Shown: positions 23,883-59,609 of the stretch, one piece after another
Numbering within the stretch: position 1 is the first letter of the stretch
Layout: every line of letters starts with the position of its first letter
Source of the DNA: Nemertoderma westbladi
Taxonomy: Eukaryota > Animalia > Xenacoelomorpha
NCBI GenBank assembly: GCA_032718475.1
Contig: JAUCBJ010004427.1
Coordinates: 1-64,000 of the forward strand
Direction: 5' to 3'
Length of the DNA stretch: 64,000 bases
Program-made: the position numbers and the translations under genes
The notes under the pieces: model-generated
Database searches by the model: none
What the model was told of the DNA's origin: nothing
Seen by the model: the letters and a program-made list of their open reading frames with translations, nothing else

Positions 23883-25027
23883 TGTTCGCGCTTTCTGACC
23901 TTTAGCAGGTTAACCTGCCAAATTTAGGTGTCTTCTAGGTTATAAATCGACTTTAGCCTATGACGAGTATTTGATACACTACATTAGCCGAAGCCAGTCT
24001 ATGCGCGACCATTCACCCGCTGGATATATCCGGGAGACTGGATTCGGAAGCTCTGACCTTATTGCGGTGTAGGCCTACTGTATTATTCGACTGATCGTTA
24101 ATATATAATCTCTGACAAATATTATTCACTTTCGGGAAATATTAACAGTTCCTTTAGGACGTGGCGCTCTAAATATGTAAACAGAGTTATGACTTACACT
24201 AGACACAACGGGATGGCTATTGATTCACGTATAAAGCGCATTCTTTAGGAGATGCTTTGTTATCTGTCACAATCATGCACACTACCGCACTACGCTGCAC
24301 ACCGATCTGCCGACCTTCACTAATTTTAGTCACATATAAAGAGAACAGCAACCGACACATGTAGTGCCCATGAAATAGCATTAGATTCACTCCAAAACCA
24401 ATATAATGTAAGTCGCAATTGCTATATGTAACCTGTCTCTTACCTTCAGTATATCAAGAAGATTGGGGGTTTTATGATTATTTATCGATATTATCCAAAT
24501 ATAATAATATTCCATCAACTGATATAATTAATAACCGACAGTAAATAGCAGTAAAAATGCTGTGTTTGTAGGTGACAATATGTTTTGTAACAATATGAAT
24601 TGCGTTGGATTGAATTGATAACAGTTATACGTTTCTATGATCAAAGCCTACTAATGTTTGGCTAAAGCGTGAAACATAGAAATTCCAAAGCCGGTGTTCT
24701 GGCATCAGGAAAAATACACACTGACTGAATTGCGTGAGTTTCTGTATACAATGTCCAACACAGAGTGAAAACCGCTCTGATTGGTCGACCGAACAAAGAA
24801 CGAACAAAGAACAAAGAAAAAGTTACACGTGGACACAGCTGATAGATGTCGTCATCTGAGTTCCGATGTTTAGAGTATTTGAGCTTATTGCGGAGAAAAA
24901 TGGCTTTTTATGTCCGCTAAAGCACACATGCAGACATAGCGGGCAAATCGCCTGTTATGTCCGCTAAAATACCTACTCGGTATATTGCGGAGAAAAATAG
25001 CTTGTTACATCCGCAAAAGCTTTTACA
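23883..25027 (-). repeat. 3' LTR of BEL copy 1 (1145 bp)
   Basis: Direct repeat of 43021-44165 with roughly 14 substitutions counted by eye; TGTTCGCGC...CTTTTACA. Confidence 0.95.
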
Positions 25028-28537: not shown

Positions 28538-28602
28538 CTCCCCCCAGTTCATTAATGAACTAATCTTGAATTGTCACACATGTGGAAATCATAATTTTAC
28601 TT

Positions 28603-31600: not shown

Positions 31601-31695
31601 AATCCCCTACATTTCACATTAACATGTGGTAAGTCGCCTAATGAACTAGGGAAACGGCCACTGGCGCATATGCCGTCCCCCTCTACTAGTTTCCC
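28603..31695 (-). pseudogene. pol: Gypsy pol (protease, RT, RNase H, integrase) with one in-frame TAG at 30205-30207
   Basis: LIDTGC (PR); DLKSAYMQ, LGYGL..AP, FRDD (RT); WADAS, AELTA, YTDS, NLADYLTR (RH); HLG..CNKC, LSDNGPAF, VERSHRTIK (IN). Confidence 0.9.
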
Positions 31696-32561: not shown

Positions 32562-32581
32562 CTCTGTCAGCCCGGTTAGCT

Positions 32582-32868
32582 TATAAGCAGTAGGTAATTA
32601 TTCTATAACACAATACAATCCTGTAATCCAGTGTATAATATTAGTAGTACAACAATCCAGCAATATTATAATTAGTAATACAGCGGTACAATAATTAGGC
32701 AGAACAACCTCACTCTGCCAGCTTTACATGTAGGCCTAACCCTCCACCTGTCACACTGTACTGTACATCTGTATGTATCTCTTAACCTCAGTTCAGCCAG
32801 TCCGGTACCGGTACAACCCACATTCGTACATCCCTCTATTGGGCCATGGCCTCTTATTTCCCCTTATA
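32582..32868 (-). repeat. Gypsy 5' LTR
   Basis: Direct repeat of 28251-28537. Confidence 0.95.
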
Positions 32869-35800
32869 CAAACCATCATCCGAGATGTGAGTCTCGATGA
32901 TACGACCTGTCTGCCACCGCTTACGTGGAAGATCTGAATCCACAATAAGGACCATGTCTCCAGCGCTGACGTTTTCTTGCTGCGCAAACCACTTAGTTCG
33001 AAGTTGTAGCGTGGGCAGATAATGTTTTTCGAAATGGTCAGCGAAACGACGGGATAACAACTGCATAAGTTGCCAAGTTTGCCAGCAGTATTCGTCTCCG
33101 TCTGTGATTTCCGATCGTGGGAGCATGGCTACAGGTTTCTTCAGTAGGAAGTGCGTGGGTGTTAGCGCTTCCAGGGAATCGGGACTCGATGAGACTGGCA
33201 TAAGCGGTCTCTCATTGAGATAGGCGGCGATTTCCTCCATTAACATCCGCAAAAGTTCGTCGGTGAGATACGCACGGCACGGCACTATAAAGTGAAATGC
33301 GGTCTTCACGCTCCTGATTAATCTCTCCCAACTTCCTCCCCACCAAGGGGCGTCGGCGGCGTTGAAGGTCCAGCTAGACGCTGTTACCCTTAGCTGATCG
33401 TCCACCTGTCTTTGGTTCCAATCTTTGACGTAAGCCTCGATTTCATTGTTGGCACCAATGAAGTTTGTTCCCGTATTAGATCTCATCGTGTTACTAGTTC
33501 CAAAGCGAGCGATCTGACGTTGTAAGCTCAATAGGAAGCTGTTGGTAGATAAATCGTTCACCATATCGAGATGGATAGCTCTACAAGTCATACAAACAAA
33601 GATGACACACCATCTCTTGACTATAGTCCTAGCACGATATACTTCAATAGGGCCAAATAAATCTACACCGGTATTAGTAAAGGGTGGTTCATAGAAGCTT
33701 ACTCGTTCCCTAGGTAATTCTGCCTCTCGCTGTGTTAAAGGCCTACTGAATGCTTTCCTACAGGGTATGCAGTTCCTAAGAACTTGGTTCAGAGCTCTAC
33801 GGGGTTTATAAAAATAATAGCGAGTTCGAATTTCGCTAAGAACTCGTTCTCTACCAGCATGATAAAGTTTGCTGTGAACATCTACAATCATCTTGATTTG
33901 TATTTCAAGATTTCTAATGAGTATGGGAAACTTAGTGTCAAAGGATAATGGAGCATTAGTTAATCTTCCTCCAACACGTATTAACCCATCTATCATTGTG
34001 CTAGAGAAACGATCCCTTAAGCGCATCTGTGGATTTCTCAACAACAGGAAATACTTATCGGAATCCTCATAGCATTGCAGGAGTCTCAGCATCTGCTTAT
34101 TGGTTTCTTCATGCTCCTGATAACTGATCTTCTCCTTCAGAAACCTGTCGGATATCTTATATTTGGGAAGATCTTTAACAACATGGACCTGCACAGATGT
34201 CAGTGGAGCGGTATCACTATTGGTCTTCGTCCTGGAGTAGTGATGATGAAAACATCGCTTTAAATATGTAACGGCCTTACAGAGCCGATTCCAGGAACTG
34301 TAGTGATATATCGCTCTCTGCAGGAGAGGTGAGAGTCCTTGTGAGACGTCTGGTATTCCAGATTTCCAATCCTTCTCTCTGATTTCCACAACAGACTTAT
34401 TTGTGGCTGTGGGTTTCGGATCCAAAGCGTCGTCTCCGGAAGTGTGTAGTACAGACAGATCTACCACGGGTTTAAATAACTTCGATTTACTCGCCCGAGT
34501 TTTAGGTTTGACTTTCTCCGCTCCCTTGGCCTGTCTAATCTCCGCCGTAGTAAGATGAGGAGGCCATTCATCCTCTTCTTTGCTTAGGAAGTTGGGTCCA
34601 CCTAACCAGTCTGGAGTATCTATCAGTTCTTGTGGAGTTGCTCCCCTGGAGGCGATGTCTGCTGGATTAATCGTTCCGGGGCAATGTCTCCATTGATCCA
34701 TCTTCGTACGACTAAGTATAATGGCTACTCTGTTGGTAACGAAGACGCTGAACTGACAGACTTCATTGGTTATATACTCCAACACGAGTAGAGCATCGGT
34801 CCAATAGACAGTTTTCTCCAGTGGATATTCGATCTGTTCTGTTACATTTCGGCCGATGGCTGTAGCGTATAGAGCCGCCTTTAACTCCGCTCGAGGAACT
34901 TTCAACTTGTTGTTTATCAATGCCTTAGAGGTAACCAAGGCGACTTTGATTCCATCCGGAGTTTCAACTCTCAGGTAGGCTACTATACCTATTCCCATAT
35001 TGCTGGCGTCTCCAAACACATGGAGTTGATATGAATACGTAGGGAGAACATGACCAAAATATGAACGGGAAATTATAAAGTTCTCGATGGCTGGTAGAGA
35101 ATCTTCCCATTTCATCCACTTCTTTAATAGTTCTCCCTTAAGTGGATCGTCCCATGAGTGGTTTTCAAGCCACATTTGTTGTACTAAACTCCGAGCAATC
35201 AATATAACTGGGCTAATAAATCCCAATGGATCGAAATAAGTGCTCAGGATACTTAAACAAATCCGTTTAGTCCGAACTGGATTATCTCGCTGTTTGAGCT
35301 GGAAAAACAGGATATCTCTCTCTGTGTCCCATTTCAAACCAAGTGTCTTGGTTTCTGGAAGATTGTCTTTGATTAAGTCTAGATCTTTCGCTCCTCGATC
35401 TTCTACCGGGATCGATTCCAGAAACTCACGGGAGTTGCTGGTGAATTTAGTTAATCGAAATCCACCTCTTTTTAAGCACTCTACCGTTCCTTTGGCGACA
35501 TCAATGGCTTCTTCCACCGATGGAAGGGACTTTAAATTGTCGTCCATGTATATATCTCGTTTGATGTTGTCGATCACCTCTTTTGAGAAGGCATCCCGGT
35601 TGTCATCAGCAGTGGTGCGCACCACTGAGCAGGCGTTTGAAGGGCTTGAGATGATCCCAAAGGCCTGGATGGTCATCCAATACTCCACCGGTTTCTGGTT
35701 GAGGTCTCCTTCCAGCCACCACAGAAATCGTAGGCTATCTCGATCCCTATCCAGCGCCTTGACTTGTAAGAACATGCCTTCTATATCGGAGGCGAAAGCG

Positions 35801-36927
35801 ATTGAATATTGTCGTAATCTTAAGAGTATTCCCAACAAGGATTGGAGTAAGTCGGGTCCTGGTAACAACTCGGAATTAAGGGATTGGCCCATGTAGAGGG
35901 CAGAGCCATCAAATACTACCCTTACTTCATGGGGTTTACCGGGTTTGGGAATGTAATGATGTGTTAAATAGTACGTTCTCTCAGTTATAGGTGTTTCTTC
36001 CGGTACTCGCTCCGCATATCCCTTGTTAATAAATTTCTTCAACTGAGTCTGATACATTTCTTTAGCTGAAGCATTTGCCGTAAGGCGTCGATGTAGTTGA
36101 GCAATTCTTTTCTCCGCCAAGGGTCGGTTGTTTATGAATTTTGGTTCTCGCTTTCGGAATGGTAGACCGATTTCATATCTACCTTGATCTTTAAGAAAAC
36201 GTGTAGTTGTCTCCTGGATCTGCTTGGCTCTTTCTTCTTCTACCGATAGGGCTTTATCGTAGGAATTGGGCTCTACGGCCTCTTGAGTAAAGAATCGTAC
36301 GGCGTGTTCATCCCAAGTCTTCGCGTTATAGCGCTCGATTACGTCATTCAGTTCGTCGTTATAGTCGACTTGTCCTGATGGACGAATGAGTTGGCATAGG
36401 TTCACTTGGTTTTGCCAAGTCTCGTTTTCCGTAAGGAGATCGATGGTATTCTCCTCGTCGAAGAGTTGGTGGATATCGTCATTATCTGAGGAGTATGGTG
36501 TTCCCTCAGTTGGGTCGTCTACCTCACTGCTCTCCACTTCCCATTCACTTACTTGATATACCTGTTCTTTTGGTAACCTTTCCATGAGAGTTCTACGGGA
36601 AGGGCCAGTAAAGTACCAACCCACTCTAGTTCTTCCTGCATAGGCTTGTAGTGGTTGAGGTTGAGCAGGCCGTTTCTCCAATGTCTCAAGCGCCTCATGC
36701 GCATTTTGGCCGATGAGTATTTGTACTCCAGGGTAATCTGTGTTGAATCTAGGTATATTAAGCCGCTGGGTGAAATCGTCCTCATCCCAGTTATAAGGTT
36801 CTACTTGGCTGGTAGCGAAGTTCTTTATCGCTACAATTTTTACTGACCTTATGCTGTGTTCTCCTAGTTCATCCTGGGGGTGGACAACGCACCTACATAA
36901 TAATCCGCTATTACTGTAGATTTCCAA
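32869..36927 (-). pseudogene. pol: BEL copy 1 pol (RT, Pao RNase H/peptidase A17 region, integrase), truncated by Gypsy insertion
   Basis: VRVVFDGS, GPDLL, SDIEGMFLQV, YMDD, FDPLG, HVFGDAS, WTDA, NPADIASRG, TGVDLFGP, APWWGGSWERLIRSVK. Confidence 0.95.
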
Positions 36928-36989
36928 ACCTGCATAATTCCTGACATGTTTAACTTAGTTCGGAACTTGGGTTGTCCAGCAAAGATGTC

Positions 36990-38855
36990 TTAGTTCTTTA
37001 GTTCTTTTGTCTCTAGTTCTTTGTCGATGAATGTTCCTGTGCTACCGGAGTCAAGGAGGGCATTCACTATATAACTCCTTTTAGGTCCGTGGACCCTCAA
37101 CTGCACTACGGGAAATTCTCGGATTCCTACATTGGAAGTTGGTGCTTTCCAAGATGGTTGTCGGTCAGAAGTAGTTAGGGGAAGCTCGCTATCGGTGTCC
37201 TTTTCATACGTAAGTGCTCGATACACTGCGGTATTTATCAGGTAACAGGATTCGTTTTCATCGGAGAATTCGTCCGTATAGAATCCTTCCATCTCACAAC
37301 TTTGGTCAGTGTCGTTCACATCACTGAATTGGACATGTAGTTCAGAATCACTTACCTGACTCGGGCTGTTTCGTTCGAATTCAGTGTGCAACAAGATATG
37401 ATGTTTTGCGCCGCACTTCGCACACCTTGCGTCGGAGTAACAGGTTCGCCTTTGGTGTCCTTGTCTGAGGCAATTATAACACAACCGCTTATCCCACATG
37501 ACTTCCCGTCTATCCTTTAATGATTTCTTTAGGAATTCATCACACACATTCAAACGGTGGGGCCCGTCACACAGCGCACATTTCGGTTTGATGTTACTTA
37601 CCTTATTTTGAGTAACGTTGTGTACACTCGTTCTTTCTTCAGGCTTTCTTACATGAATTCTCTTAGGAGACGTAGGAGGAGTTTTTCTTACCTGTTCTCT
37701 CCTGTCATTGGTTCGAGACTTGAATTTACTTACGTCTTTAGGCGTTTTGTTGACATAATAAGATCTTTCAGTGTCTTTCCCGCTGTCTTCTTCTTGAGAA
37801 GCCTGGCTTTCGCCGTCGTCGGTATAACACACTGGTGTTACCTTTCTCCTAGAAACGGGTTTCTCACTTACCTTGTTTTCCGGTGTCTTCTCTCTGGACT
37901 GCTTTAGGAGCTGTAATTTCACTTCTCCATTTAAGAATGACATGAGATCAGCCATGGTAGGATCTCGTCGTTGTTGTTCCATCATATATAACACTTTCTT
38001 ATCCCAGCGTGTACCTACTCCACCCTTCGGTAAAGTAGAGGCCACGGCTCCAATAACCATAGAACTCTGATATTCATGAGACTTACCTAGCCAATCTAAT
38101 TGTCTACAGATCTCCTGAATCTCATCGGAAAACTCTATAATCCCGCTGCTAATGAACTTTAGGTGGGCTACCAATTTTGCATACAAATACCTAGCTATGT
38201 TATTCCTATTACCATACCTGATGTTTAGGGTATCCCAAACTTGTCTTAGTCCTTCTGGATGTCCAATAAACTTTAACGCCATTAACTTGGGAGATCCTTC
38301 CAAGCACTCGATGAGGAATCTAAGTTTCTCTCCGTTAGATAACACAGAGTTCTGTATGTTATCCTTGTAATATTCATTAAAAGGTAACCATTTCATCTCA
38401 TCTCCATTAAACTTGACGATCTCTCCCACCTTTACCGCTTGACGGGCTTCGGTTCTAGCCATTTGACGCGTAAAACTTTCTTGGGCCATCGTATTATTTA
38501 ATATCGAGTTATCGGTATATAAATTTCTCGGATTATGATCAGGTCTATATGGAATATCATTGTCAACAGGTTTATAATTACCCTTAATAGGGTTTACTAT
38601 AGGAGTTTCTACTTCACTAGCAGTATAGATGCGTGTAGGCTCCACACCTTGCGCATGAAATACTTCAGACCTAACAGGTTGACACATTGTTACCGGGGTT
38701 GGTGGTATACCCTTTTGTATATTTACTAATTTATCGCGTTCTAACGCGATATTCTGCTGCACTTCTTGCAACTCTAACCTACTTTCCCTTACTGTTCCCT
38801 TGAACTGCTGAACAGTTCCTTCCATCTCCCGGACCTGCTGTGCTGAGAGGAGCAC
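36990..38855 (-). pseudogene. gag: BEL copy 1 Gag core (DUF1759-like, three Cys/His knuckles) and aspartic protease
   Basis: KFNGD..KW..F, EKLRFL..CLEG, CALCDGPH..C, CYNCLRQGH..C, CAKCGAKHHILLH, ALLDSGS. Frame broken at ~36990 by small tandem duplications. Confidence 0.92.
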
Positions 38856-40758
38856 TGACGGTGTTCCCTCAGCTTCCCGAGCAGGAGACCCATCTCCCGT
38901 CGTCCCTCAGCTACCCACTCTACCGCCGAAGCGGGAGTCGCCAACGTAGTAGCGGGCGAGCGAGAGACGACGGGCGATAAATTCTTGATATCTCGCTCGG
39001 CGTCCAGGACGGGTTCGGACTCGTGAACAGTCCTACTGGGCACAGGTAGTTTAGTACTGTGCAAAGGGAATTTAGAGGTAGGTTCTGGGAGTACAGGTGT
39101 CTCTATCACCGAAGGGGTGGCTTCGAGAACAGGCCTAATTATTTCAGGCTCATCTACTATAGTAGGGAGTCTTTCTATTTTAATTATTTGGTCTGTGGGT
39201 TCTGTACTACCTAAGTCTGTGTTAGTTAGTTGCCTTCTAACAGCTGGGGGTAAATTAGGCAATTTCTGACGGTGGGACATTCTTCTACGTCTGCTTAGAC
39301 GAGATCTAATTCCTCCGCCTTCAGGATCGGTGGTATCGCCTTCATCAGATGATGTATATCCCTGTCTTTTGGGAGTAGGTCGACTCATCATCTGCATTTT
39401 ACTAGCTGTTAACTGTTTATTTATGCGGTCTTGATTCTCTTGAATATTTTCCAACTCTAGTTGGGTGGTCTCTTCAGATGCTCTTCGTTCTGCTTCTGCC
39501 ACAGCTCGCTTTCTTTCCGCTTCTGCTGCTGCCTCTGCCACTTTTCTTCCCGCTTCTGCCTCTGCTGCTGCCGCTGCTGCTATCTTTCTGTCTTCTATAC
39601 GTTTTTTCTTTACTTGTTCTTCTTGGACTCTAGCGATGCGGAGGCGTTCATCAAATTTAGCTTGGTTCGCAGCTAACATATCCGCATCGATTGCGTCCAA
39701 CACAAGCTTGGCTCCTTCACTATTAGGGCGAAGTCCAGACAGCCGTCTCCTCAACTCTTCGTCACCTACAAATCGTTGATAGTCTGACAGATAGATGTCA
39801 ATAGCATCCCTCTTATGCGGTTTTTCTGCTGTCACTTCACTTTCCACTTGGGAAAAGGTAGCGTCTGTTGATTCTCCATGGGTTGAGCGCTCCGCCAACT
39901 GAGATTTCCACGGGGCAGTTCCTTGAACTTTGAGACTCACCCGCTGAAACCAAGTCTTTACGGCAACTTGCAACGACGTGTCTTGTCTTCTTTTTGAAGC
40001 CTCCTCAAAGGCCGATAAGATTAGTCTGATTCTTAGAATTCTTTCTCTAACTTGATAAAGCAGCTCTCCCTGCTCTTGAGGTCCTTGGGGTTGTCGAAAC
40101 AGTTGTTCCTCTAATCGCTCCATAGAGCTGAAGAATCCCTGTACGTATCCTGCTGCTGACCTCTTCCACACAGCTGGATCGCTGGTTTCTTTTGTCACTC
40201 CCATCCTGTGTATGTCTTCCCAGGCAGCTTCCGATAAGTCAAACGGGAGTCCGGGTCCGGGGAAGTTCCATTGCGACTCGACAATAGACTTCAGTTCTTC
40301 CCTTGTGTATCCCGATAACTATCCTTGGTCGATCGCTTACTTCTCGCCCAATCAATCTGGTGTTCCTCCACCGCAATCAATACTCTAGTGAGTACGGCTG
40401 CAGGAAGGATGAGAAGGGGATCCGAATAAGCCGCATCTGCCATCTTTGCTCCGCGCTCGGGTGTCAGCTCTACAGTAACCGCACTACTGGAGCTGTCGGG
40501 CCGTTGAGAAATAAGTTCTCGGCTCGAGTGTTGCTGCTGTTCTGCTGCTTCTTGGTCCCGCTTGACCTGAGCTCGAGTGCCTATGATAGACCTACGGTGT
40601 TGGACTAGCTTAGGGTCTGATACTACTACTGGAGGGATGATCTTTCTTACGGTAGGAGGTGAATTGAACTTCGGTCGCACACGTTCCACACTCCTGTCTG
40701 GGTCACAGATGGTTGTATCTAGGAGACTGTCTGACAGGTTTGGCTTTGTGTCAGACAT
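38789..40758 (-). pseudogene. Long N-terminal Gag extension of BEL copy 1 (ORFs 40291-40758 and 38789-40204, joined by frameshifts)
   Basis: Homologous collinear ORFs in copy 2 (54223-55626), where the frame breaks are at different places; Ala/Glu/Lys-rich coiled-coil segment. Confidence 0.7.
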
Positions 40759-40894
40759 GTTTGTTTGTACAGTTGAATGCCTACTGCTATATTACAGTTA
40801 AAGCAAGTCTAGTAATTCAGTATCACCGTTAGCCTAGTAATTAATTACCGATATCGTTACTCTATGTAACGTGATATATATACAATATATTAGA

Positions 40895-41144
40895 ATACCG
40901 GTATACACTTATAGTATATATATAAGTATTATTACAGACTAGGTTTGTCACAGAATACCGGTATATAATTTCAGCACAGATATATATAAATATATAATAG
41001 GCCTATCGTGAATACCGGTATACAGCTTACACTTATAGTATATATAAGTATAATTATGGACTAGAATTAATTACAGAATACCGGTATAATTTCAGCCTAA
41101 ATTTATAGAAATAAATATAATAAGCCTATCGTAAATACCGGTAT
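40895..41144. repeat. Array of five ATACCGGTAT palindromes at ~60-bp spacing in the BEL 5' leader
   Basis: Starts at 40895, 40955, 41012, 41078, 41135; retained with some variants in copy 2 at ~55764-56013. Confidence 0.8.
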
Positions 41145-42100
41145 GTCAATTATTTTAGAATAATTGAATTTCTGAATTTTAGGGGTTACTTGTTTACTTT
41201 ACTTTACTTGATTGCCGTTATTTAAGCAGTAGTCCAACTGACATTAAGACCTAATTGTTGTAAGACAGGCCTACTATTTTATAAATCGGTTTAAGTTGAT
41301 TTATAATATATATATACCCGTATAATGGGTTTTGTCAATATTTGAAATAAATGTTATTATTTCTGGGAAGGAGTCACTACACAGAAGCTGTGTGCTCTCA
41401 GTGAAGTGCTACTTGTTGGACACTAAAAACAAATAATTATAATTTACCTAAGTTACTTATTACTACAAATTACGTACAATACGGGGTGAGATTACAATCT
41501 CTAAATAAACACAAAAATTACACGTACGAATTTTTAGGGTAATTTCACAAGAAGTCTACAAACCAGCCTAACAAAGGGTCAGAATATCTGGTTATTACAA
41601 ACAGACAGGATTCTACGGCATTTGAAAATAACAAAGCAGTAGTAAATATACTGCGCTGTCCAGATAGGAAAAATACCACCGTCTGACGACTTATAGCCGT
41701 ATCGCTATAAGTACTACGTTATGTTTCACAGAGTGTTCCTACCTAGAAGTTAATTACCGCGGCCTATCAGAGCCAACGTGCCTATTAACCACTTTACAAC
41801 ACAAATATACTGCCTACACACTAATTACCTTCGGAAAGCACTGTACACTAAACCCTAAATTAGGTACAAGTACTTATACAACAAATAACCAGCAGTTAGA
41901 AATACTTGTACAGCTAAAAGAACCACGGTATCTGCTGGAGTGACCGGGGCACAAAATCACCAGTCTTTACCTACGCCAAGCAGCCCTGATGTAGTACCGG
42001 GGTTAATTTAACTATAACGGTATGTATAACAAGCACAATTACTGTAGGAATAAACTTGGGGTTGTGAATGTTGCGAATAATCGCATAAACTCTGAATAAT

Positions 42101-42675
42101 AAATATTACGCTACGCGTACAGACTACACAAACAAAATACAGACCAAACGCTGGCAGACTACTATCAAGCCTAAACAAACTACAGTATATGCAGACTCCG
42201 AAATGGTTAGTTAGTATGCATTCTAACCGAGTAGTACGACTTATTCTTTCGGGGGGATTTACCTCACAGCACTGGAAGCCCCTACGTTCCTAACTAGTAC
42301 TCTATCGGACATACACTCTACACACACCGCAATCTCTTCAGATCTAACAACAGCCAGGCAACAATCCAGCCTACAAATTATCTAAATAAGAAATATTACG
42401 CTACCCGTACAGACTACACAAACAAAATACAGACCAAACGCTGGCAGACTACTATCAAGCCTAAACAAACTACAGTATATGCAGACTCCGAAATGGTTAG
42501 TTAGTATGCGTTCTAACCGAGTAGTACAACTTATTCTTTCGGGGGGATTTACCTCACAGCACTGGAAGCCCCTACATTCCTAACTAGTACTTTATCGGAC
42601 ATACACTCTACACACACTACAATCTCTTCAGACTTAACAACAGTCAGACAACAGTCCAGCCTACAAATTATCTGT
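42101..42675. repeat. ~290-bp tandem duplication in the BEL 5' leader
   Basis: aaatattacgctac at 42101 and 42391; also duplicated in copy 2 (~56954, ~57243). Confidence 0.88.
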
Positions 42676-43020
42676 ACAATCTGAGCAGGCTTACACGTCT
42701 TCTGCTCAATATTAACCTACAAATAAATAAAACTGACAGAAATAAGTAAACCATACAAAGGAATAAGGGGTGATCAATCCCTAATCCCCTAACAGCCTAC
42801 AATATATAATATATCACAATCGAAATAATACTGGTACCTGTACTGCAGTAAGTACCGGTTCGGGTGGTTAGGTAGTTAGGCCTACTAGTTACCGGTTGAC
42901 CGGTACTTCAGCTTTATTGCCTACGTTGCAATACAGAAGCAATAACTGTTATTGTTCTTACCAGAACAATAGTAAACTGTATTTATTGCCTACACTGCAA
43001 TAAGAAATCATAACTGTTAT

Positions 43021-44165
43021 TGTTCGCGCTTTCAGACCTTTAGCAGTTTAACCTGCCAAATTTAGGTGTCTTCTAGGTTATAAATCGACTTTAGCCTATG
43101 ACGAGTATTTGATACACTACATTAGCTGAAGCCAGTCTATGCGCGACCATTCACCCGCTGGATATACCCGGGAGACTGGATTCGGAAGCTCTGACCTTAT
43201 TGCGGTGTAGGCCTACTGTATTATTCGACTGATCGTTAATATATAATCTCTGACAAATATTATTCACTTTCGGGAAATATTAACAGTTCCTTTAGGACGT
43301 GGCGCTCTAAATATGTAAACAGAATTATGACTTACACTAGACACAACGGGATGGCTATTGATTCACGTATAAAGCGCATTCTTTAGAAGATGCTTTGTTA
43401 TCTGTCACAATCATGCACACTACCGCACTACGCTGCACACCGATCTGCCGACCTTCACTAATTTTAGTCACATATAAAGAGAACAGCAACCGACACATGT
43501 AGTGCCTATGAAATAGCATTAGATTCACTCCAAAACCAATATAATGTAAGTCGCAATTGCTATATGTAACCTGTCTCTTACCTTCAGTATATCAAGAAGA
43601 TTGGGGGTTTTATGATTATTTATCGATATTATCCAAATATAATAATATTCCATCAACTGATATAATTAATAACCGACAGTAAATAGCAGTAAAAATGTGG
43701 TGTTTGTAGGTGACAATATGTTTTGTAACAATATGAATTGCGTTGGATTGAATTGATAACAGTTATACGTTTCTATGATCAAAGCCTACTAATGTTTGGC
43801 TAAAGCCTGAAACATAGAAATTCCAAAGCCGGTGTTCTGGCATCAGGAAAAATACACACTGACTGAATTGCGAGAGTTTCTGTATACAATGTCCAACACA
43901 GAGTGAAAACCGCTCTGATTGGTCGACCGAACAAAGAACGAACAAAGAACAAAGAAAAAGTTACACGTGGACACAGCTGATAGATGTAGTCATCTGAGTT
44001 CCGATGTTTAGAGTATTTGAGCTTATTGCGGAGAAAAATGGCTTTTTATGTCCGCTAAAGCACACATGCAGACATAGCGAGCAAATCGCCTGATATGTCC
44101 GCTAAAATACCTACTCGGTATATTGCAGAGAAAAATAGCTTGTTACATCCGCAAAAGCTTTTACA
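43021..44165 (-). repeat. 5' LTR of BEL copy 1
   Basis: Direct repeat of 23883-25027. Contains CCAATCAGAG and CAGCTG motifs conserved in all three LTR types, and CACGTG in copies 1 and 2. Confidence 0.95.
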
Positions 44166-45174
44166 TGAGCTGAGGAGCCGTTGGGCTCCCTCTAGTGATT
44201 TCTGAGAGTACTCTTAACTCATCAGCAAAGTCTAGATCAGTTAGGTACTTGGCAGGATTTCCTCGACTTCTGGAGCCAGTAGGTGGAGTTATCATCACCC
44301 CATCATCATTATGATGATCTAAGGACATGAGTAGAACATAGTCAACCACAATTATGAACAAGAATGGTGCAAGTGTGTCTCCCTGGAGGACGCCCCATAA
44401 CACTTCCAATGGTTCTGTGTCACCGTCAACAGTAGACACAAATGTTGTCGAACCATCGTATACTGATCCGATTGCTGCAATAATTTCATCAGGAATCACA
44501 TATAATGAAAGTATGCTGAACATACGTAAGCGAGAGACTGAATCAAAGTCCTTGAAGAAGTCAACAAAGGTAACAGCCAGATGCATGTCTTTCTTTTTTG
44601 ATAACTCTTCAATTATCCTTCTAACTGCCAATATGGGCTCCATGGTCCCACGACCTTTACAGAACCCATTCTGATTTCCACGGAGCAGTCTCTCAATGGG
44701 ATCCCTGATGCAATTTAATAGAATTCTATTGTATAGCTTTGCAGCAATCGAGATCAATAAGATTCCCCCATAAAGACCCATAGAGTGTTAGGTGGCTGAG
44801 TACTGGCACCAAATTATTTATTTTCATTTCTTGTGGAACTCTTGTTGTTCGGTACATGTGGGATAGATGAGCTTTAAACACTCAGGTATTTTAAAGACCT
44901 CAGGGGGAACACCATCTACTCCACTGGCACGATTGGTCTTAATGTTGTTTGCAGCAGCCTTCACTTCTGCAAAGGAGATATTGCCAATAGGAATATCTGG
45001 GGGTACAGACTCAGACACTTTTACTTCTATAAAGTTATCAGGCAATACCCTGTCATTATTGAGGAGCTTTTCAAAGTGGGCCTTCCAACCATTGAGGCGA
45101 TCGGCTGGTGATTCAGCCTTAACCTTGGTGGTTGGTTGGCTTTACCGCCCAGTAAGCAAGTTGATCGATTTTAC
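44166..45174 (-). pseudogene. RTE reverse transcriptase core fragment
   Basis: AAKLYNRILL, NQNGF, FVDF..FDSV, GVLQGDTLAPFLF, DLDFADE; frameshifted. Confidence 0.9.
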
Positions 45175-47762
45175 TAACCCGCATAAGGAGTTTTATGAAC
45201 TACGTGAGATTCGTGATAGTAAATGGGTACCATCTAATGATGTCCTTCAGGCAACACCAGGCAAGATCTCGGAGCCAAGCAAACTCATAAAAGGGTTTAG
45301 GTCCAGTTCATGGTCCATTGGCACTCACGCCCACAGATCAGAGTCTATTGGGAGGCAAACTATGGAAACAAACAGAGCCAACACCAACAATCTCACAGTC
45401 ATTGGGGGATTGCCAGGATTGACTAACCGCTAATAAGTTATTTCCCTGGAGTAAACAATTTCAAACTAGGGGTGTTCATATTGCTCATATTAATATATGC
45501 AGACTTCTACCGAAAATTAGTGAACTACGAGTATTGCTTTCAAAGCCGTTTCTACATTTACTTTTAGTTACTGAAACATGGCTTGACGATTCAACTACAG
45601 ATGAAAGTGTCAACATACCACATTATAAAATAATAAGAAGAGATAGTGAAGCGAATAAGGATGGAGGTGGTATTGCTATCTATATTAATGTTAATATTGA
45701 TTTCGAAAAGATACCAAAATTCTCCCACCCAAAGTCAGAAATAATATTTGGAGAACTGCTCCTACCTGGGACCAAACCAATACTAATCGGAGTCATATAC
45801 CACCGACCACAAACTGATGCGACTTTTTTTGAAAACATAGAGGATACTCTTAGCCCAGGGGGTTATCAACATTACCCGGTGTCATGGCAACTGGAAACCA
45901 AGCAACGATAACATTACCAGTAACTAAAGATACTTCTATACCCCATAAACTAGCATACTTCTGTTCTTGGTCTTAAAGCAAATAATAACTGAGTATACGC
46001 TTGTCACAGAATCTATGTACAAGCACCATAATTGATCATGTATTCGTCTCAAGTGTTATTAAACTAAGAATGAGTGACCACTACCTGATATTCTGTACCT
46101 GTAAGAAGGTTAAACTACCCATAAATATGGGTAGTTAACAAAGAAATAATTTGTCGGAATTATAAAAACTACAATAAGGATATAATGCTGGTAAATACAA
46201 GAGCAAACACCTTTACCCAAGGAGTAACTTCTCCGACAGATGTCAATGACGCAGTAAGGCAGCTATCTGATCAACTCACAAATATAATTGACCGTTTAGC
46301 GCAGAGAAGATCAGTGAGATTCAAACACCGAAGTGAGCCATGGATGGATAGTGAGGTTCGCAATGCGTCAATTATCCAGGAAATTGATTGTGGGATCGAT
46401 CACCAACAAACTTCAATCTGGATTTCGGCGTGGATATTCGACCGAGACTACTCTAATCTATCTAGACAACTTCATCCGAGAAGGTATTGAGAAAGGCCGT
46501 CTTACAGGTATGGTCGTAATAGATCTCAGCAAGGTGTTTGACACCATAGATCAATCCACACTGCTAGCCAAACTCAGCACTACAAGATGGATGAAATCGT
46601 ACCTGTTGGGTAGACAACAGTTCGTGAGTATTAATGGTGTAGAATTGGAAAGGAGCCAAATTGACATTGGAATTCCACAAGGTTAGATTTCGGGGCCCGA
46701 TTTATTCGGTGACCATACCAATGACATTCCCCAAGCTATAGAAATTCCAGCCCCAATGTTTGCCGATGATACGAGCTTATTGGACTCCAATGCTGATATG
46801 GATGAACTATCTCGCGTCCTGTCAGAGAATATGTATGCTGTGTACGACTGGTGTAATGATATCACCTCAGCATAAATTTCAAGAAAACCCAGGCGATTTA
46901 TTTTGGTACACATCAGAGGTTAGCATCAGCTCCGAAACTACAAGTTAAATGCTGCGGCATTGAAATACCGGTGAAGGATGCGGTCACCTATCTCGAAGCA
47001 GAACTCGATGACACTCTTGCAGGTGAGAATATGGCTCAACAAATAATTAAAAAAGGGAAACAGCAGTCTAAAGTTTCTTCACCACAATGGAGGAGTTCTC
47101 GATCGCCATTCCCGTCGACTACTCTGCATGGCGCTCATCCAGCCCCATATGGACTACGCCTCTAGCTGCTGGTTCTTGACTATCTCTACCAAATTGCGAA
47201 CTCAGTTGGAGGCTCTCCAACGCAAATGCATTTGTTTCTGCCTGGGTATGGGGTCTCGTGATCACATCGGCCCGGTCCACTTCAAGGATATATGCTGGCT
47301 TCCATTAAGGGAAAGAGGTGCTATTCTAAAATTCTGTCGTATATGTATAACGTTCTACACTTGCAAGCTCCATCATACCTCTCAGAGCTACTGTAGTTTA
47401 TTTCAATCAAGGTGCAATTAATCTTCGGGGGCCACATATACTTGCAGAAATCCAACAGAGATACACTGCCCTTCTTGGTCAGCTTACATTCTCGTACTAC
47501 GTGCCCTTTGTTGTGGAATGATCTACCGTGGTTAATAACTCTAGCGCCATCTCTTGTCGTATTCCAACACAACCTGAAGAAACACTTTTTAGCTAAATTT
47601 ACATCCATGGATTTATTATGTTTCAATTACTTATAAACTTTATATTTTATCTACCTTTTATGGTCATACAACCACTGTTTTTGGTTATTATTTTTACAAA
47701 CAGGATCCCTATGTAAATGATATGCAATTATCTCTGGGATGTAAAGTTAGTTACTTAGTGTA
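45175..47762 (+). mobile_element. Decayed CR1/L2-group LINE: end of ORF1, APE endonuclease and RT remnants, 3' UTR
   Basis: VTETWL, GGGIAIYI, IDHVF, SDH (APE); QSGFR..YSTET, IDLSKVFDTID, SYL.GRQQ.V, GIPQG, FADDT, LIQPHMDYASSCW; many stops and frameshifts. Confidence 0.88.
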
Positions 47763-48961
47763 TGTTCGCGCTTTTGAAGACCTTTGGCAGTTTAACCCGC
47801 CAAATCTATATGTCTTCTAGGTTATAAATCTACTCCAGCCTATGACAAGTATTGAACACCTATAATAATTCTAACATTAGCCAAAGCCAGTCTGTGCGCG
47901 ACCATTCACCCGCTGGATATACCCGGGAGACTGGATTTGGATGCTTTAATTTGATTGCGGTGCAGGCCCACCGTACTATTCGATTGATCGTTAATATATA
48001 ATCTCTGACAAATATTATTCACTTTTGGGAAATATTAGCAGTTCCTTTAGGACGTGGCGCTCTATCTATTTAAACAGAGCTATGACTTACACTATACACA
48101 ACGGTATGTCTTATAGATCACCAAAGTGCATTCTTTAGGAAATGCTTTGTTACTCGGTCAAGCACACACAGACTATTGCACACAACTGCACACTGAATTG
48201 CCGATATTCACTGATTTTAATCATATATAAAGAGAATAACAACCGACATTTGTAGGGCCTATTAGGTAGCATTGAATTCACTACAAACCACGATAATGTA
48301 TGTCGCAAATTGTTATATGTAACCGGTCTCTCTAACCTTAGTGTATCAAGAAGATTGGGTTTTCGGATCGTTATCAATATTCTTCCCAATAATAATATGT
48401 AAACGAACGATTCAATTAACAACACAGTAAATAGCAGTTTACGTCAGGGTGCTTAATCAGATGCCGAGGTGCAAAACCGTGATAACCATTTGATGATCTT
48501 ATAATTAAAGACGCTCTAATGTCAGAAAACATTCCCCGGCCGGTGTTCTAGGCGTGGGGGAAACGTCAGTACTGAACCCTGTAATTCTGCTGTACAGCTT
48601 TTACACAAAGAGGGAATCTCTGATTGGTCGAATGGCAAAGAGCTCCACGTGGACACAGCTGATAGATGTCGTCATTTTGAGCTGAGCAGAACAAAGAACC
48701 AAGGCAAGGCTCCGGGCAAGCTACACATGTAAAGCTCAGCCGTTAGCTGTCGTCATAGTAACGACACTGTTTCAAGAGGATCTAGGGCGTTGCGTCATAG
48801 AATTGCTAATTATGTCCTCTTAAGTACACATACAGAAGAAATAGCTTTTATGTCCCCTAAAAACACCGGTACAGCAATGACACGGCCTTTTATGCCTGCT
48901 AAACCAACTACAGAGTACTTTACGGGGAAAATAACCGGGCAATTCCGCAAAAGCTTTTACA
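47763..48961 (-). repeat. 3' LTR of BEL copy 2 (1199 bp)
   Basis: TGTTCGCGC...CTTTTACA; first ~425 bp repeated at 57878-58301. Confidence 0.9.
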
Positions 48962-49038
48962 CCGCTCCCAGAAAATGGGATTTTAGTCTATAAAATATAA
49001 AAATCACAGTTTCTAAAATATAAAGATACTCTAAACAG

Positions 49039-49946
49039 TTAGTTTTTCTTGCGCAGACGGCGTTTACGCAGTTTCTTGAGACTAGCAAGAGTCCTTTTCT
49101 CTTTGGGGCGAGCCACTTTACTAGGAGGGCTATAACTCCTGGGTGAAGGGTGCAATACAATTGCATCAGAAGGTTTAGGGTTACAGTCAGTGTCTCGTCC
49201 ATTTCGATCTGCTTCTCCTCGAGCTGATTTTCCTCCGCTTGTCGTTGGACACGCTCGTCCAAAACTCTCGCAGAGAATAGGGTTGTCTAAGCTCGATATC
49301 TTCTTAGAGATTCAAGATTTCCCAATCGAACTGAGATAAAGCCAATTCGTTTACCGCTTGGACTTGCTGTTATAACTAGCGTAGGTGATTTGTCGAACAA
49401 GTTTCGGTTTCCGTGGATGTTTATGTCTTTCCGTTTATTAGTTGGGTCTAGGGCATTTATCGTAATAATACCAAAGACGCACGTCTGGTAGGGGAAACGC
49501 GGATGATATTTATTTGTTGTTACAATGCTTCTATCAAGAATTCCAAAATATACGTTAGAGTTACCGCGTCCATTTGTCTCTCTAATGTCTTTTCTTTCGA
49601 GTCGATTTCGAATAGAATTTTCGCATTCGAATTTCAGTTTATCGTTCCGACTCCGCTGGGTAGGATATATGTTCGACATAGTCCGTATCGTGTGAATCGA
49701 TAGAATGGCCAATGGTTAAGAAGTCCATATCCGTACTATTACGATGCGTGTAGCGAGCGGTGAATTTTCCATAGTCCAATTCACGCGTAAGTTGCTTCTA
49801 GCAAATCGTCGGTTCGATATAACGACCATCGTCCTCCGTAGTAGTTGGACTAGCATCGCCGCGTATCAAGCTATCAACAAACACTTGTAAAGGTAGAGTA
49901 TATCGCTCCCCGATACCAAGACCATCTTCTATCAACTCCGTTATAT
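49039..49946 (-). pseudogene. Extra ORF of BEL copy 2, decayed and internally deleted
   Basis: Homology to 25104-26408 (YPTQRSRNDKLK.ECENSIRNR; same basic C-terminal tail). Confidence 0.7.
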
Positions 49947-51593
49947 CTGCTATATATGAGTTTATTAATATTATAATGAGCTTATAATTAGGCTAGCGAG
50001 CGTCGCTGCCTACCCCAATCAGCCCCCGGACAGTGTAAGATGCTCAGCGCAAATGTATCGTCGTCGCTGTGTTTTCCGCCAACGTGTAGCTACACAATGA
50101 CAACGACACTAGCACGAGTCACTCCACTGTCCGTCCCAAAGGCTTAGATTCACTTCAGGTTCTTACTGGAGAGTTAGGGTTACTTTCACAATTGCGACTC
50201 GCTACTGTAAACACACTTTAGTAGCAACATTCGCCTATAAACTCACAAATTCCACACACACAACTGTCACAAATTACACACACTCGGGCCATTTGTCCGT
50301 TAGTCAGTGCCTTCCAGAATGCCACGTTATTATTATGTATCCTTGGATACTAGCAGTGCGCTATTTATTTCTTACTATGCAATGGGGCAAGCTTTCTATT
50401 GTTCTTTTTAACTTGCTTCTAATTCTAGCGTGGGTGTTACTATGGTGACATTATGGAAAGCTAGCGGTAGAATTAGGGTAATTCCAATGCATACAGATCT
50501 GGGATGCTATTTAATATTAATTCTTTAATGGTCCAATATCTCGTTTATATATGATTTTATAAATTTTATCGGCTATTGACTCATACATGGGAGATTCTCA
50601 CACTCTAACACACTTAATAGGATGAATCTCCGCTCCCGTGATCTATTAATTAATGGGATTTTGGGAATGTTATAAATTGCACAGAATGACAATTTATCAA
50701 ATTCATTAAAATATGAATTTAAATTTATTCCCTGAAATTTTATTATTTGATAGTACAATTGACACAATTTGATTCCAGAGCAGGTCTGGGGACATAGGAT
50801 CCTTAATTCTATGAAAATTGTCTTTTAAGAGTATCGGTAAGTGCTACGATATCTTAATCGACTAGAATTGTTAAAGGATCTGAATTTTACAGATTTTGAT
50901 TTATAGATTTGTAAATATTAAATAATTAATATTTGAGATGGGCACCAATTTATTCCAGAACTTGTCTGGGGACGTTAACCACTGATTCTAGAATTTGTCT
51001 TTCAAGTATATCGGTGGGTGCCGCGATATCTTAATCGACTAGAATTACAGATGGTCAAAAGGTTTAACAGATTTATTTGCGTTTCACGCTACTGTTAGAG
51101 GGACATCACGCTACTATATGTATTATTATATATGGTATGAGAGCAATATCGCACGAAGCAATGTCAGTGTGAAGAGGCAAGTCGTTTCCAAGGTCTACCC
51201 AGAGCTTGGTTTAGCCGAGACACGAGGATCTGAACTTTGCATTCCTAATACTCTGCCTACCAATAATACTTGAATATAGTAATGGCTTTATTGTACTTTA
51301 ATAAGTACGGACATTTCATCTTACTGTAGTCACGTATTTATAATATGATACGGACAGTAAGGAAAGAGAAAAATAATTATTTCTCGCCGTCGCACTAAAT
51401 ATATATTATAAGTAATTACGTACGTAATAGACACTAATATATTGCACTAATCTACTAAATAATCACTAAAATAACATTCTACTAAATAAAATTAAAGAAA
51501 ACGATTATAATAAAATTACATAATAATACATACATAAATATAAAATAAAAACAAATATAAAATGATATAGTCACACGCCCACTCCATATGTTA

Positions 51594-55626: not shown

Positions 55627-57877
55627 GTTTGTTTACACAGTTGAATGCCTACGGCTATAAATACAGTTAAAGTAAGTCTAGTAATTCAGTATCACTGTTA
55701 GCCTAATAATTAATTACCGATACTGCTACTCAGTGTAGCGTGATATATATATAATATATTAGAATACCGGTATGCTTATAGTATATATATAAGTATTATT
55801 ACAGACTAGATTTGTCACAGAGTACCGGTATATAATTTTAGCACAAATATATATAAATATATAATAGGCCTATCGTGAATACCGGTATACAGCTGACACT
55901 TATAGTATATATAAGTATAATTATTACAGACTAGAATTAATTACAGAATGCCGGTATGATTTCAGCCATAATTTATAGAATAAATATAATAAGCCTATTG
56001 TAAATACCGGTATGTCAATTATTTTAAAAAATAATTGAATTTCTGAATGTTAGGGGTTACTTGGTTACTTTACTTACTTTATTACCGTTATTTAAGCAGC
56101 AGTCCAACTGATATTAAGACCTAAGTGTTGTATAACAGGCCTACTATTTTATTAATAGATTTAGTGGATTTATATGTACCCGTATGAGGGGTTTTGTTAC
56201 AATATTGAAATAGATGTTACTATTTCTGGGAAATAATCACTACACAGAAGATATGCGCTCTCAGTGAAGTGCTACTTATTGGACACTAAAACAGATAATT
56301 CTACTTCCTAAGTTACTTATCTGCGAATTACTTACGATACGGGTGAGATTAATTCTCTAACTAAACACAACAAAAATATTACGTACGAAATTTTAGGGTA
56401 ATTTTACAGGGAACTACAAACCAGTCTAACAGAGTGTTAGATTTTCTGGTTATTACAACGGACAGGATACTACGGTATTTGAAAATAATAAGTAGTAGTA
56501 AATACACTGTGTTGTCCAGATAGGAAAATACCACCGTCTGACGACCTATAGCCGTATCGCTATAGGTACTACGTTATGTATCACGGAGTGTCCCTACCTA
56601 GAAGCTAATTACCGCGGTCTACCAGAACCAACGTGCCTATTAACCACTTTACAACACAAATATACTGCCTACACACTAATTACCTTCGGAAAGCACTGTA
56701 CACTAAACCCTAAATTAGGTACAAGTACTGGTACAACAAATAATCAGTAGTTAAAAATACTTGAACAGCTAAAAGAACCACGGCATCTGCTGGAGTGACC
56801 AAAGCACAAAATCTCCGGTCTTTACCTACGCCAAGCAGCCCGTGTAGTACCGGGGTTAATTTAACTATAACGGTATGTATAACAAGCACAATTACTGTAG
56901 GAATAAACTTGGGGACATGAATGTTGCGAATAATCGCATAAACTCTGAATAATAAATATTACGCTACCCGTACAGAATACTCAAACAAAATACAAACCAA
57001 ACGCTGGCAGACTACCATCAAGCCTAAATAAACTACAGTATGTGCAGATTCCGAAATGGTTAGTTAGTATGCGTTCTAACACGGTAGTACGACTTATTCT
57101 TTAGGAGGGGGTTGACCTTACAACTCAAGATGCCCCAACTTACTAACTGGCACTTTATCAGACAAACTCTACACACGCAGCAATCTCTTCAGACCTAATA
57201 ATAGCTAGACAACAATCCAGCCTACAAAATATCTGAGTAATAACTATTACGGTACCTGAACAGACCACACAAACAAACACAGGCTAAAACGCTGGTAGAC
57301 TACTATCAAGCCTAAATAAACTACAGTATATGCAGATTCCAAAATGGTTAGTTAGTATGCGTTCTAACACGGTAGTACGACTTATTCTTTAGGAGGGGGT
57401 TGACCTTACAACTCAAGATGCCCCAACTTACTAACTGGCACTTTATCGGACAGACTCTACATGCACTGCAATCCGTTCAGACCTAACAACAGTCAGAACA
57501 ACAGTCCAGCCTACAAATTATCTGTACAATCTGAGCAGGGTTACATGCCTTCTGCTCAATATTATCCTACTAGTAAATAAAACTGACAGAAATAGACCTA
57601 AGTAAAATCCCAATAAAAACCAGGCGTCCCCGATTTAATATCGAGACCTACCGGTATATAATTATCAAAATCGAATAATACTGCTGTACCTGTACTGCTG
57701 TAAGTACCGGTCCGGATGATCAGGCAGTCAGGCCTACAGATTACCGGTCGACCGGTACTTTAGTCTTGATCGCTTACGCCGCAATCAAGATCCTACAAAC
57801 TGTTATTGTTCTTACCAGAATAATATTAAACTGTATTTATTGCCTACACTGCAATCAAGAATTTTACAAACGGTTAT

Positions 57878-58301
57878 TGTTTGCGCTTTTGAAGACCTTT
57901 GGCAGTTTAACCCGCCAAATCTATATGTCTTCTAGGTTATAAATCTACTCCAGCCTATGACAAGTATTGAACACCTATAATAATTCTAACATTAGCCAAA
58001 GCCAGTCTGTGCGCGACCATTCACCCGCTGGATATACCCGGGAGACTGGATTTGGATGCTTTAATTTGATTGCGGTGCAGGCCCACCGTACTATTCGATT
58101 GATCGTTAATATATAATCTCTGACAAATATTATTCACTTTTGGGAAATATTAGCAGTTCCTTTAGGACGTGGCGCTCTATCTATTTAAACAGAGCTATGA
58201 CTTACACTATACACAACGGTATGTCTTATAGATCACCAAAGTGCATTCTTTAGGAAATGCTTTGTTACTCGGTCAAGCACACACAGACTATTGCACACAA
58301 C
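57878..58301 (-). repeat. Partial 5' LTR of BEL copy 2
   Basis: Near-identical to 47763-48186; the match breaks at the TG of copy 3. Confidence 0.9.
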
Positions 58302-59609
58302 TGTACGCGCTTTTGAAGACCTTTAGCAGTTTAATCTGCCAAAATTTATATGTCTTTTTGTTTATAAATATACTTTAGAAGATGACAAATATTTAATACT
58401 AATAAACACAACATTAGCAGAAGCCAGCCTAGTGCGCGTCCATTCACCCGCTGGATAATCCCGGGAGACTGGGTTCTGAGGGCTTAAATTATTATTGCAG
58501 TGAAGCTTACTGTATTGTATTATTCGATTGATCGTTAATAATTAATTTCTGACTAATATTATTTACTTTCGGGAAATATTAACAGTTCCTTTAGGACGTG
58601 GCGCTCTATCTAAGTAAACCGAGATATGACTTATACTAATCACAACGGTAAGTCGGTAAGGCTTAAGATTCACGTATGAGGCGCATTCTTTAGGAAATGC
58701 TTAGTTATCAATCACAATCATGCACACTACCAGTAACACACAATACTGCACACTAATTTGCCGACCGTCAATGAATTTTATCATATATAAAGAGAACAGC
58801 AACGGACCAATGTAGTGCTTATCAAATAGCATTAAATTCACTACAAACCACAACAATATAAGTCGCAATCGCTATATATAACCCGTCTCTCTAACCTGTA
58901 GTGTATCAAGAAAATTGGGAAATTTGGGTTCTTTATATATGTTCTCCAAATAATGTTCAACCAAACACAACAGTAAATAGCAGTATAATAATGTATGTTA
59001 AACAGTAATAACAACCAAGTATTGAATTTTGAATGGAGTTGTATTGAATTGAGTTGAATTGGACTGATATGTGAGTTGTTATGAATTGTTAAGAACTGAT
59101 AACAGTCATACGCTCTATAATTTTAGCCTACTAATGTTTCTTCTAAAAGTATGAAACGAATTGATTCTAGAGCCGTTGTTCCTGGCCTAGACAGCAATAA
59201 CCACAAAGTATCAAGAAAAAACAGTAAGACTGAACACTCTCCTTATGATCGACCGAAAAGCTACACGTCGACAGGAAAAATCGCTCTGATTGGCTCAAGC
59301 CAAACAAAGAACCATGCGTCCAATGGCTGTTTCCATGTCAGCAACCAGCTGTTAGATGTCGTAATATGAATCATCACGGCTAAGCTATGAAAGGTATTTG
59401 TCGCATTGCAGGTTTTTTGCCTTACCATGTCCGCTAAAACACGTATATAGCAGAATGACTTTTATGTCCGTTAAAACACCTGTAAAGGTACCTTGCGGGC
59501 GAGGGGAATATATATACAGTTAGAGAACCTTTTTAGAGTATTCCAGCGCCTGGGGGGAAACTGGATTGCGAAGCAAAAGGGCCAGTTATATCCCACAGAA
59601 GCTTTTACA
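58302..59609 (-). repeat. 3' LTR of BEL copy 3 (1308 bp)
   Basis: Same terminal motifs and conserved blocks as the other LTRs; followed on + strand by ccgctcccagaaaatggga as in copy 2. Confidence 0.85.

Follow-up and report, generated by a model that had tools for sequence, protein, structure and literature searches.

Results

The window contains three copies of a BEL/Pao element family

The window, by which we mean the whole 64-kb stretch of DNA analysed here, consists of animal-type, repeat-rich DNA. Comparison of the stretch with itself, combined with reading of the junctions, placed three copies of a single BEL/Pao LTR element family on its minus strand, with the following features.

44165-23883, minus strand: copy 1, whole element, with the target duplication GCTCA on both flanks
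43021..44165, minus strand: copy 1 5' LTR, 1145 bp, TG...CA ends
23883..25027, minus strand: copy 1 3' LTR, containing a copy of the LTR motif described below (24629-24618)
36990..40318, minus strand: copy 1 gag region, two overlapping frames (40318-38789 and 38906-36990), DUF1759
32854..36954, minus strand: copy 1 pol frame, 1366 codons, with Peptidase_A17, integrase zinc finger (Integrase_H2C2) and DUF5641
58301-47763, minus strand: copy 2, whole element, most of pol missing
57878..58301, minus strand: copy 2 5' LTR remnant, interrupted by copy 3
47763..48961, minus strand: copy 2 3' LTR, 1199 bp
58302..59609, minus strand: copy 3 3' LTR, inserted within the copy 2 5' LTR; copy 3 extends past the window edge

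The two LTRs of copy 1 differ at 15 of 1145 bases and those of copy 2 at one of the 424 bases that can be compared. The coding region of copy 1 is spread over three frames, and the end of pol is interrupted by a nested 4.6-kb element. Because copy 1 encodes DUF1759, Peptidase_A17, the integrase zinc finger and DUF5641, the family is assigned to BEL/Pao (Belpaoviridae). The Gag-Pol domains of the family are of BEL type and stand in the order PR-RT-RH-IN, copy 1 has the TG...CA LTR ends and target-site duplication of a BEL/Pao element, and PF05380 is present in all of the 120 homologs listed for the window element. In domain set and order, in TG...CA LTRs and in a 5-bp target duplication, the family thus resembles the Belpaoviridae as described by the ICTV (PMC8742986). 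That description also gives an 18-nt site for tRNA-Arg or tRNA-Gly, and calls replication of the group poorly understood (PMC8742986). Here the window family departs from it: copies 1 and 2 lack the tRNA-type site, TGG being absent after the LTR, and the LTRs, at 1145-1308 bp, reach or exceed the top of the 0.2-1.2 kb range given there (PMC8742986). We treat the family, which is without an ICTV-type tRNA site, as a BEL/Pao variant on protein evidence.

Between the integrase and the 3' LTR lie stretches of about 3 kb (25028-28250, 48962-51734 and 59611-62841, all minus strand), which are 85-89% alike among copies where alignable and have broken reading frames, a weak zinc-knuckle match in copy 3 and a basic C-terminal stretch; they are possibly a decayed extra gene. 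The leader of copy 1 (40400-43000, minus strand) exceeds 2 kb and contains tandem duplications of ~290 and 120-160 bp, and the LTR end occurs there a second time with its primer site.

Each primer site is complementary to its own LTR

The sites at which a minus-strand primer would be expected, and the LTR motifs that match them, are as follows.

43009..43020, minus strand: copy 1 primer site (PBS position), ATAACAGTTATG, no TGG
57867..57877, minus strand: copy 2 primer site, ATAACCGTTTG, no TGG
43756..43767, minus strand (also 24629-24618): copy 1 LTR motif, TATAACTGTTAT, complementary to the copy 1 site; candidate self-primer
48482..48492, minus strand: copy 2 LTR motif, CAAATGGTTAT, complementary to copy 2's own site
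59099..59110, minus strand: copy 3 LTR motif, TATGACTGTTAT, whose partner primer site lies beyond the window
42941..42952, minus strand: second PBS-like copy in copy 1, where LTR end and primer site are tandemly duplicated
57796..57806, minus strand: second PBS-like copy in copy 2, position 6 unlike the first site

Both primer sites adjoin the terminal ACA of the LTR, and in each of them the very first base past the LTR is already paired. The copy 1 motif occupies LTR positions 399-410, 735 nt ahead of the LTR end, and forms 12 pairs with its site (11 Watson-Crick and one terminal G-U); the copy 2 duplex has 11 pairs (10 Watson-Crick and one internal G-U). Both copies therefore carry the sequence mark used to predict self-priming, namely at least 10 bases, starting 0-5 nt past the 5' LTR, that are complementary to the LTR. 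The original prediction had reported these strings, the missing TGG, and a complement at a homologous place in each LTR, 27-30 nt after ACATTAG. All of the strings were found where it had placed them, the absence of TGG was confirmed in copies 1 and 2, the complementarity amounts to the 12 and 11 pairs just given, and the distance from the start of ACATTAG to the motif is 28 nt in copy 1, 30 nt in copy 2 and 27 nt in copy 3. Its caveat that the copy 1 motif is quasi-palindromic is one we share: the motif is nearly a palindrome, and the duplex is short and AU-rich.

The match is specific to each copy. Own duplexes reach about -11 kcal/mol (-11.1 to -11.4 in copy 1, -10.9 to -11.1 in copy 2) as against -3.5 and -2.5 kcal/mol when site and motif are swapped between the two copies. 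Within each LTR the motif is the top pairing site, the next-best partner reaching -8.5 (copy 1) and -7.7 kcal/mol (copy 2), a lead of 2.9-3.4 kcal/mol. LTR shuffles equalled the real score once in 300 for each copy; with offsets of 0-5 permitted, p was 0.020 for copy 1 and 0.025 for copy 2. When leader positions were used as mock primer sites, 1 of 1900 scored equally well in copy 1 and 9 of 1900 in copy 2, and of 20000 shuffled versions of the copy 2 site, 3 gave a match to the homologous 40-nt stretch.

Site and motif also changed together, as had been claimed: alignments of copies 1 and 2, the two copies on which this comparison rests, reveal one exchanged pair and one matched single-base gap. 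The second PBS-like copies sit 68-71 nt downstream of the first sites, in both elements as part of a duplicate that also takes in the LTR end. In copy 2 the position-6 change is present only in the LTR-adjacent site and not in the downstream duplicate, and the changed 3' end is common to both, such that the covariation partly reached the duplicate, which is a partial control only. As copy 2 is missing most of pol and yet has near-identical LTRs (1/424), its variant primer site is likely to have worked recently.

Transcription is predicted to start upstream of the motif

Candidate starts were read using the initiator consensus and the CCAAT-to-start spacing.

43918..43922, minus strand: CCAAT box, kept in all three window LTRs
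43862..43867 (A at 43864), minus strand: TTCAGT initiator-like motif, candidate start, 58 nt past the CCAAT box
43656..43685, minus strand: TATTTA, then TCAGT 27 nt later, rival candidate start, ~100 nt downstream of the motif

The CCAAT-to-TCAGT spacing is 58, 54 and 62 nt in copies 1, 2 and 3, in which TCAGT stands 97, 81 and 121 nt ahead of the motif. Since CCAAT followed by TCAGT is kept in all three window LTRs, a start some 80-120 nt upstream of the motif, in copy 1 most likely near 43864, seems the likelier one; the primer would in that case be internal to the transcript, unlike that of Tf1. The rival TATTTA-TCAGT lies at the margin of the conserved LTR portion (80.6% for copy 1 versus copy 2 over LTR positions 476-1145, the motif-bearing part being divergent), and its TCAGT is absent from copy 2. 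We found no support for a start at or near 43767, where the original prediction had put it: of 17 elements, 1 has a TATA box at 16-38 nt upstream of its paired bases (~0.5 expected), copies 1 and 2 have none there, and the CCAAT-TCAGT arrangement points further upstream. A TATA at about -30 from the motif was accordingly rejected as a general rule.

The same signature recurs among distant BEL/Pao relatives

The nearest proteins among the 120 homologs listed are at most 43% identical to the window element, with no near family member among them; the hosts named are cnidarians, echinoderms, a ribbon worm and tunicates. A search of viral contigs gave 68 pattern matches and no relative. With an alignment of 20 proteins as the query, we collected 80 metagenome loci (the best of 546 confirmed) and 20 loci from genome contigs, to which 11 further stretches from three genomes were added, giving a total of 111 loci. 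LTR ends could be set in 21 of the 111; together with the two window copies these make 23 elements, some of which are sister families and hence not all independent. Loci without two LTR ends were excluded, as were L015, L027, L063, L068, L089 and L097, whose LTR ends are unclear. In L124-L126 the 3' LTR is incomplete and the 5' LTR end was placed by eye beside TGG. RT identity of the 21 relatives is 29-44%, most relatives having 38-45% identity; six have a tRNA-type TGG start and 15 do not.

A first test with 14 relatives and the two window copies gave scores of at least 8 in 9 of 16 own pairs versus 30 of 240 cross pairs. Over the 23 elements, an own-LTR score of at least 9.8, spliced or unspliced, was reached by 14, versus 8 of 498 cross pairs (the number left after removal of 8 sister pairs). 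All six TGG-start elements have self-complement scores of 3.8-7.8. Three relatives lacking TGG score 8.0-8.8 with the strict filter, and two of these three reach 11 unfiltered. The commonest duplex length among self-complementary elements is 11, the length also known for Tf1 (PMC7175516). A scan of 20 further loci lacking a defined LTR end returned eight spliced duplexes of 10-12 pairs, two of them repeating families already counted, and three unspliced ones of 11-12 pairs; it was not counted, shuffle maxima having reached 8-12. The window family is one of a broad group of BEL/Pao elements that carry this signature.

Removal of predicted LTR introns would assemble the complement in many relatives

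In 8 of the 23 elements, the LTR yields a duplex, of 11-15 pairs, only if joined at a predicted GT-AG junction with a strong donor and a pyrimidine-rich acceptor; no junction duplex with a score of at least 10 was found in the 498 cross pairs. With the filter on site quality removed, seven relatives gave a best junction whose acceptor is pyrimidine-rich and whose donor is GTAAGT, GTACGT or GTATGT. Introns of 76-451 nt are predicted in the LTRs of the following loci; splicing them out would generate the complement to the primer site.

L005, L006, L022, L028, L029, L084, L122, L123: predicted LTR introns
L092, L082, L072, L002, L014, L018, L023, L040: further predicted LTR introns of the same 76-451 nt set

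A complement that spans a splice junction can exist only in RNA. The sister pair L084/L122 has two matched changes at the junction. In about half of the self-complementary relatives the motif would thus be split by a predicted LTR intron, and in the window family it is in one piece. A spliced primer for the window copies was rejected, their best junctions scoring below the unspliced match. Also rejected was a role as initiator for the TCAGTT found at the motif start of several relatives, where splice acceptors fit better.

A single origin of the trait is possible

Quick trees were used, with rows that include no named references (Pao, BEL, Tas, Suzu, Sinbad, Dan, Flow). A FastTree of 103 rows puts the window element, which has a long branch, into a group of 11 rows whose members include the tRNA-type L038, L050 and L057, plus L072, which has a 12-pair spliced match; a mixture model did not settle its place among those groups. 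Forcing all 12 self-complementary rows together cost 1.85 log units and was not rejected (AU p 0.34). One origin for all self-complementary relatives is possible, and an origin specific to the window family is not needed. The proposal that self-priming evolved independently in a BEL lineage has therefore divided. Self-priming is the best-supported reading and has been strengthened by the relatives; invention by the window family itself was not upheld, given that most of the relatives fetched share the trait and a single origin is not rejected.

RNA folding favours the short-loop relatives

In folds of the copy 1 5' region (868 or 965 nt, for either candidate start), the duplex has a pair probability of 0.00, and forcing the long-range duplex costs ~11 kcal/mol; in the local fold, the copy 1 site pairs with its own downstream duplicate. 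Long-range fold predictions are weak, and Gag may chaperone the pairing. Among four unspliced relatives with loops of 62-251 nt the duplex folds, with pair probabilities mostly near 1; L062 was uninformative as a fold control, its 5' copy being without the motif. By these models the window family appears to be the least comfortable case for self-priming among the relatives because of its long loop. Two structures were considered as counterparts of the flanking duplexes of Tf1: a predicted leader hairpin, with no double-sided changes, and the following.

43039..43060, minus strand: hairpin predicted close to the 3' end of the LTR; 4 of 4 LTRs retain it, without double-sided changes

Discussion

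A model for self-priming in the window family

Taking the pairing, its placement and its behaviour between copies as a whole, we think it probable that the window family self-primes minus-strand synthesis much as Tf1 does, with a stretch of its own LTR RNA. Transcription would start upstream of the motif, most likely near 43864, so that the primer would lie inside the RNA instead of forming its 5' end. The motif would anneal to the primer site across a loop of ~720-735 nt, probably with the assistance of Gag. Cleavage by the element's RNase H is predicted immediately 3' of the motif, following GTTAT; this position is suggested because the RNase H of Tf1 cuts just past its paired 11 bases. All three window LTRs share GTTAT and the two bases that follow it. 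Extension from the freed 3' end would then proceed into U5. Going by a title of Atwood-Moore from 2006, the Tf1 primer is reportedly not removed. Plus-strand copying of the primer would here rewrite the primer site from the LTR motif, and this would explain the covariation. In Tf1 itself, the 11 leading bases anneal to the primer site, and the RNase H cut falls between bases 11 and 12 (PMC7175516), with priming set in a three-duplex structure (bioRxiv 2022.12.06.519325).

The position of the motif in the transcript bears directly on this model. Were transcription to start downstream of the motif, near 43658, the motif would lie in U3, and the RNA would contain it only in its 3'-LTR copy; priming would then draw on the 3' end of that RNA or of a partner RNA, or on a minor transcript started upstream. 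We consider this improbable. Copy 1 does have TATTTA with TCAGT 27 nt on, strong LTR conservation begins there, and Tf2 has alternative starts, one alone of which includes the self-primer (PMC5341516), but this TCAGT is not found in copy 2, whereas the upstream CCAAT-TCAGT is in all three LTRs, and the match in spliced relatives requires an exon ahead of the junction, in keeping with a 5' location. It is likewise unlikely that the pairing is a structural or regulatory RNA stem serving as dimer, packaging or translation switch, with priming by something else. The copy 1 site is almost palindromic and able to pair with its duplicate, as might suit such a stem, and cleavage and priming are here predicted from sequence. 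Nevertheless, the pairing abuts the LTR end, exactly the position required of a primer, is absent from all six tRNA-type relatives, and centres on 11 pairs. Furthermore, neither a tRNA gene nor an Rfam RNA was found within the elements, which also led us to reject an element-encoded tRNA or known RNA as the primer.

A host tRNA fragment or other small RNA, with the LTR match incidental, would have precedents, since half-tRNA primers are known in Copia lineages (PMC6317226), and the element nested in copy 1 has a 12-base match to a tRNA-Lys 5' end. We nonetheless hold it to be very unlikely, as the sites vary among copies and families, each matching its own LTR and not others, and no single host RNA could pair well with the two window variants without being variable itself. 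Least probable of all is chance, or an accident at the DNA level (template switch, conversion) that left an inverted repeat without function. In its favour, the single-copy p is only 0.007-0.025 and the motif is AT-rich and near-palindromic; it is largely excluded by the fact that two diverged copies use one homologous site and show matched changes there, and by recurrence in distant families, often only after predicted splicing. Self-priming thus remains the reading that we prefer.

Relation to known self-priming elements

Self-priming has been reported or predicted for Tf1/sushi elements, for Tcn1 and for the TAR lineage of Copia (PMC6317226, PMC4600332). The window family resembles Tf1/Tf2 of Schizosaccharomyces pombe, Tj1 and the Tf1/sushi Ty3/gypsy chromoviruses in lacking a tRNA site and in that ~11 post-LTR bases pair with its own LTR RNA (PMC7175516, PMC4600332, bioRxiv 2022.12.06.519325). 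It differs in superfamily, having BEL-type domains and no chromodomain match in the window element, which places it outside Tf1/sushi; in addition, intron-split primers are not among the Tf1/sushi descriptions in the portions of these sources available. For the TAR lineage of Ty1/copia (Houba, Osr-1) and for plant Tcn1, self-priming was predicted from the same sequence criterion, at least 10 bases, from 0-5 nt past the LTR, complementary to the LTR (PMC6317226); unlike the BEL/Pao window family, those are plant Copia or Gypsy elements.

Within BEL/Pao, Achilles is described as tRNA-Tyr primed (PMC4580426). The words primer, PBS and tRNA are absent from a BEL/Pao survey (PMC3118150), PBS and tRNA go unmentioned in the Sinbad paper (PMC554778), and BEL LTRs were not modelled according to the part available of PMC3601003; the available parts of PMC3286476 and PMC8233318 hold nothing on the question. 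In the literature searched, part of it available as excerpts and with subscription journals, Repbase reports and supplements outside its scope, no published case of BEL/Pao self-priming was found.

It is tempting to go further, and we lean slightly towards the view that a large, old branch of BEL/Pao in aquatic invertebrates is self-primed, in what would be a third origin after Tf1/sushi and TAR; many of its members would depend on splicing, the window family being intron-free with an internal primer and a loop of more than 700 bases. BEL/Pao elements are among the most abundant LTR groups in animals and are assumed to be tRNA-primed (PMC8742986). A widespread self-primed branch, if true, would correct that assumption and add a further independent origin of self-priming, and would explain why primer-site filters based on tRNAs would miss such elements. 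The splice-junction form of the primer, if true, would tie priming to host splicing. Among these elements the window family represents the cleanest Tf1-like form and, at the same time, the hardest case.

Other features of the window and of the fetched loci

The element nested in copy 1 (28251-32869, minus strand) is Gypsy-like, with RT, RNase H, rve and DUF7047, and has two identical 288-bp LTRs without TG...CA ends. The 12 bases after its 5' LTR (32581-32570) have no complement inside the element; they are identical to the 5'-terminal 12 bases of a tRNA-Lys(TTT) gene with an intron, an animal gene in L133 that comes from another organism. Judged from this match, priming of the nested element by a 12-base 5' tRNA fragment is possible.

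Copy 1 itself was inserted in RT-coding sequence (44161-44787 and 23161-23874, both minus strand), with RVT_1 upstream and a weak DUF6451 match downstream, and a weak endonuclease match lies nearby on the opposite strand (45423-45911, plus strand); these are likely to be LINE remnants. Elsewhere in the window, 900-bp inverted repeats (96%) surround inverted short-tandem-repeat arrays at 4945-11350, a foldback-like element, and an 804-codon frame at 575-2989 (minus strand) with weak DUF1258 and Transposase_21 matches is a CACTA-like transposase. Further repeats (15951-21948, 22489-23756 and 12447-15039) comprise a 3-kb tandem duplication (94%), a 640-bp tandem duplication (93%) and a 510-bp direct repeat pair (95%).

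Of the fetched loci, L132-L143 lie on one contig (G002:C35) and form a tandem array with a 1054-bp unit that carries tRNA-Glu, tRNA-Lys and tRNA-Asn genes, two of them intron-bearing. This array is eukaryote-type DNA within a bacterial genome bin, and the BEL loci L081-L100 appear to be likewise.
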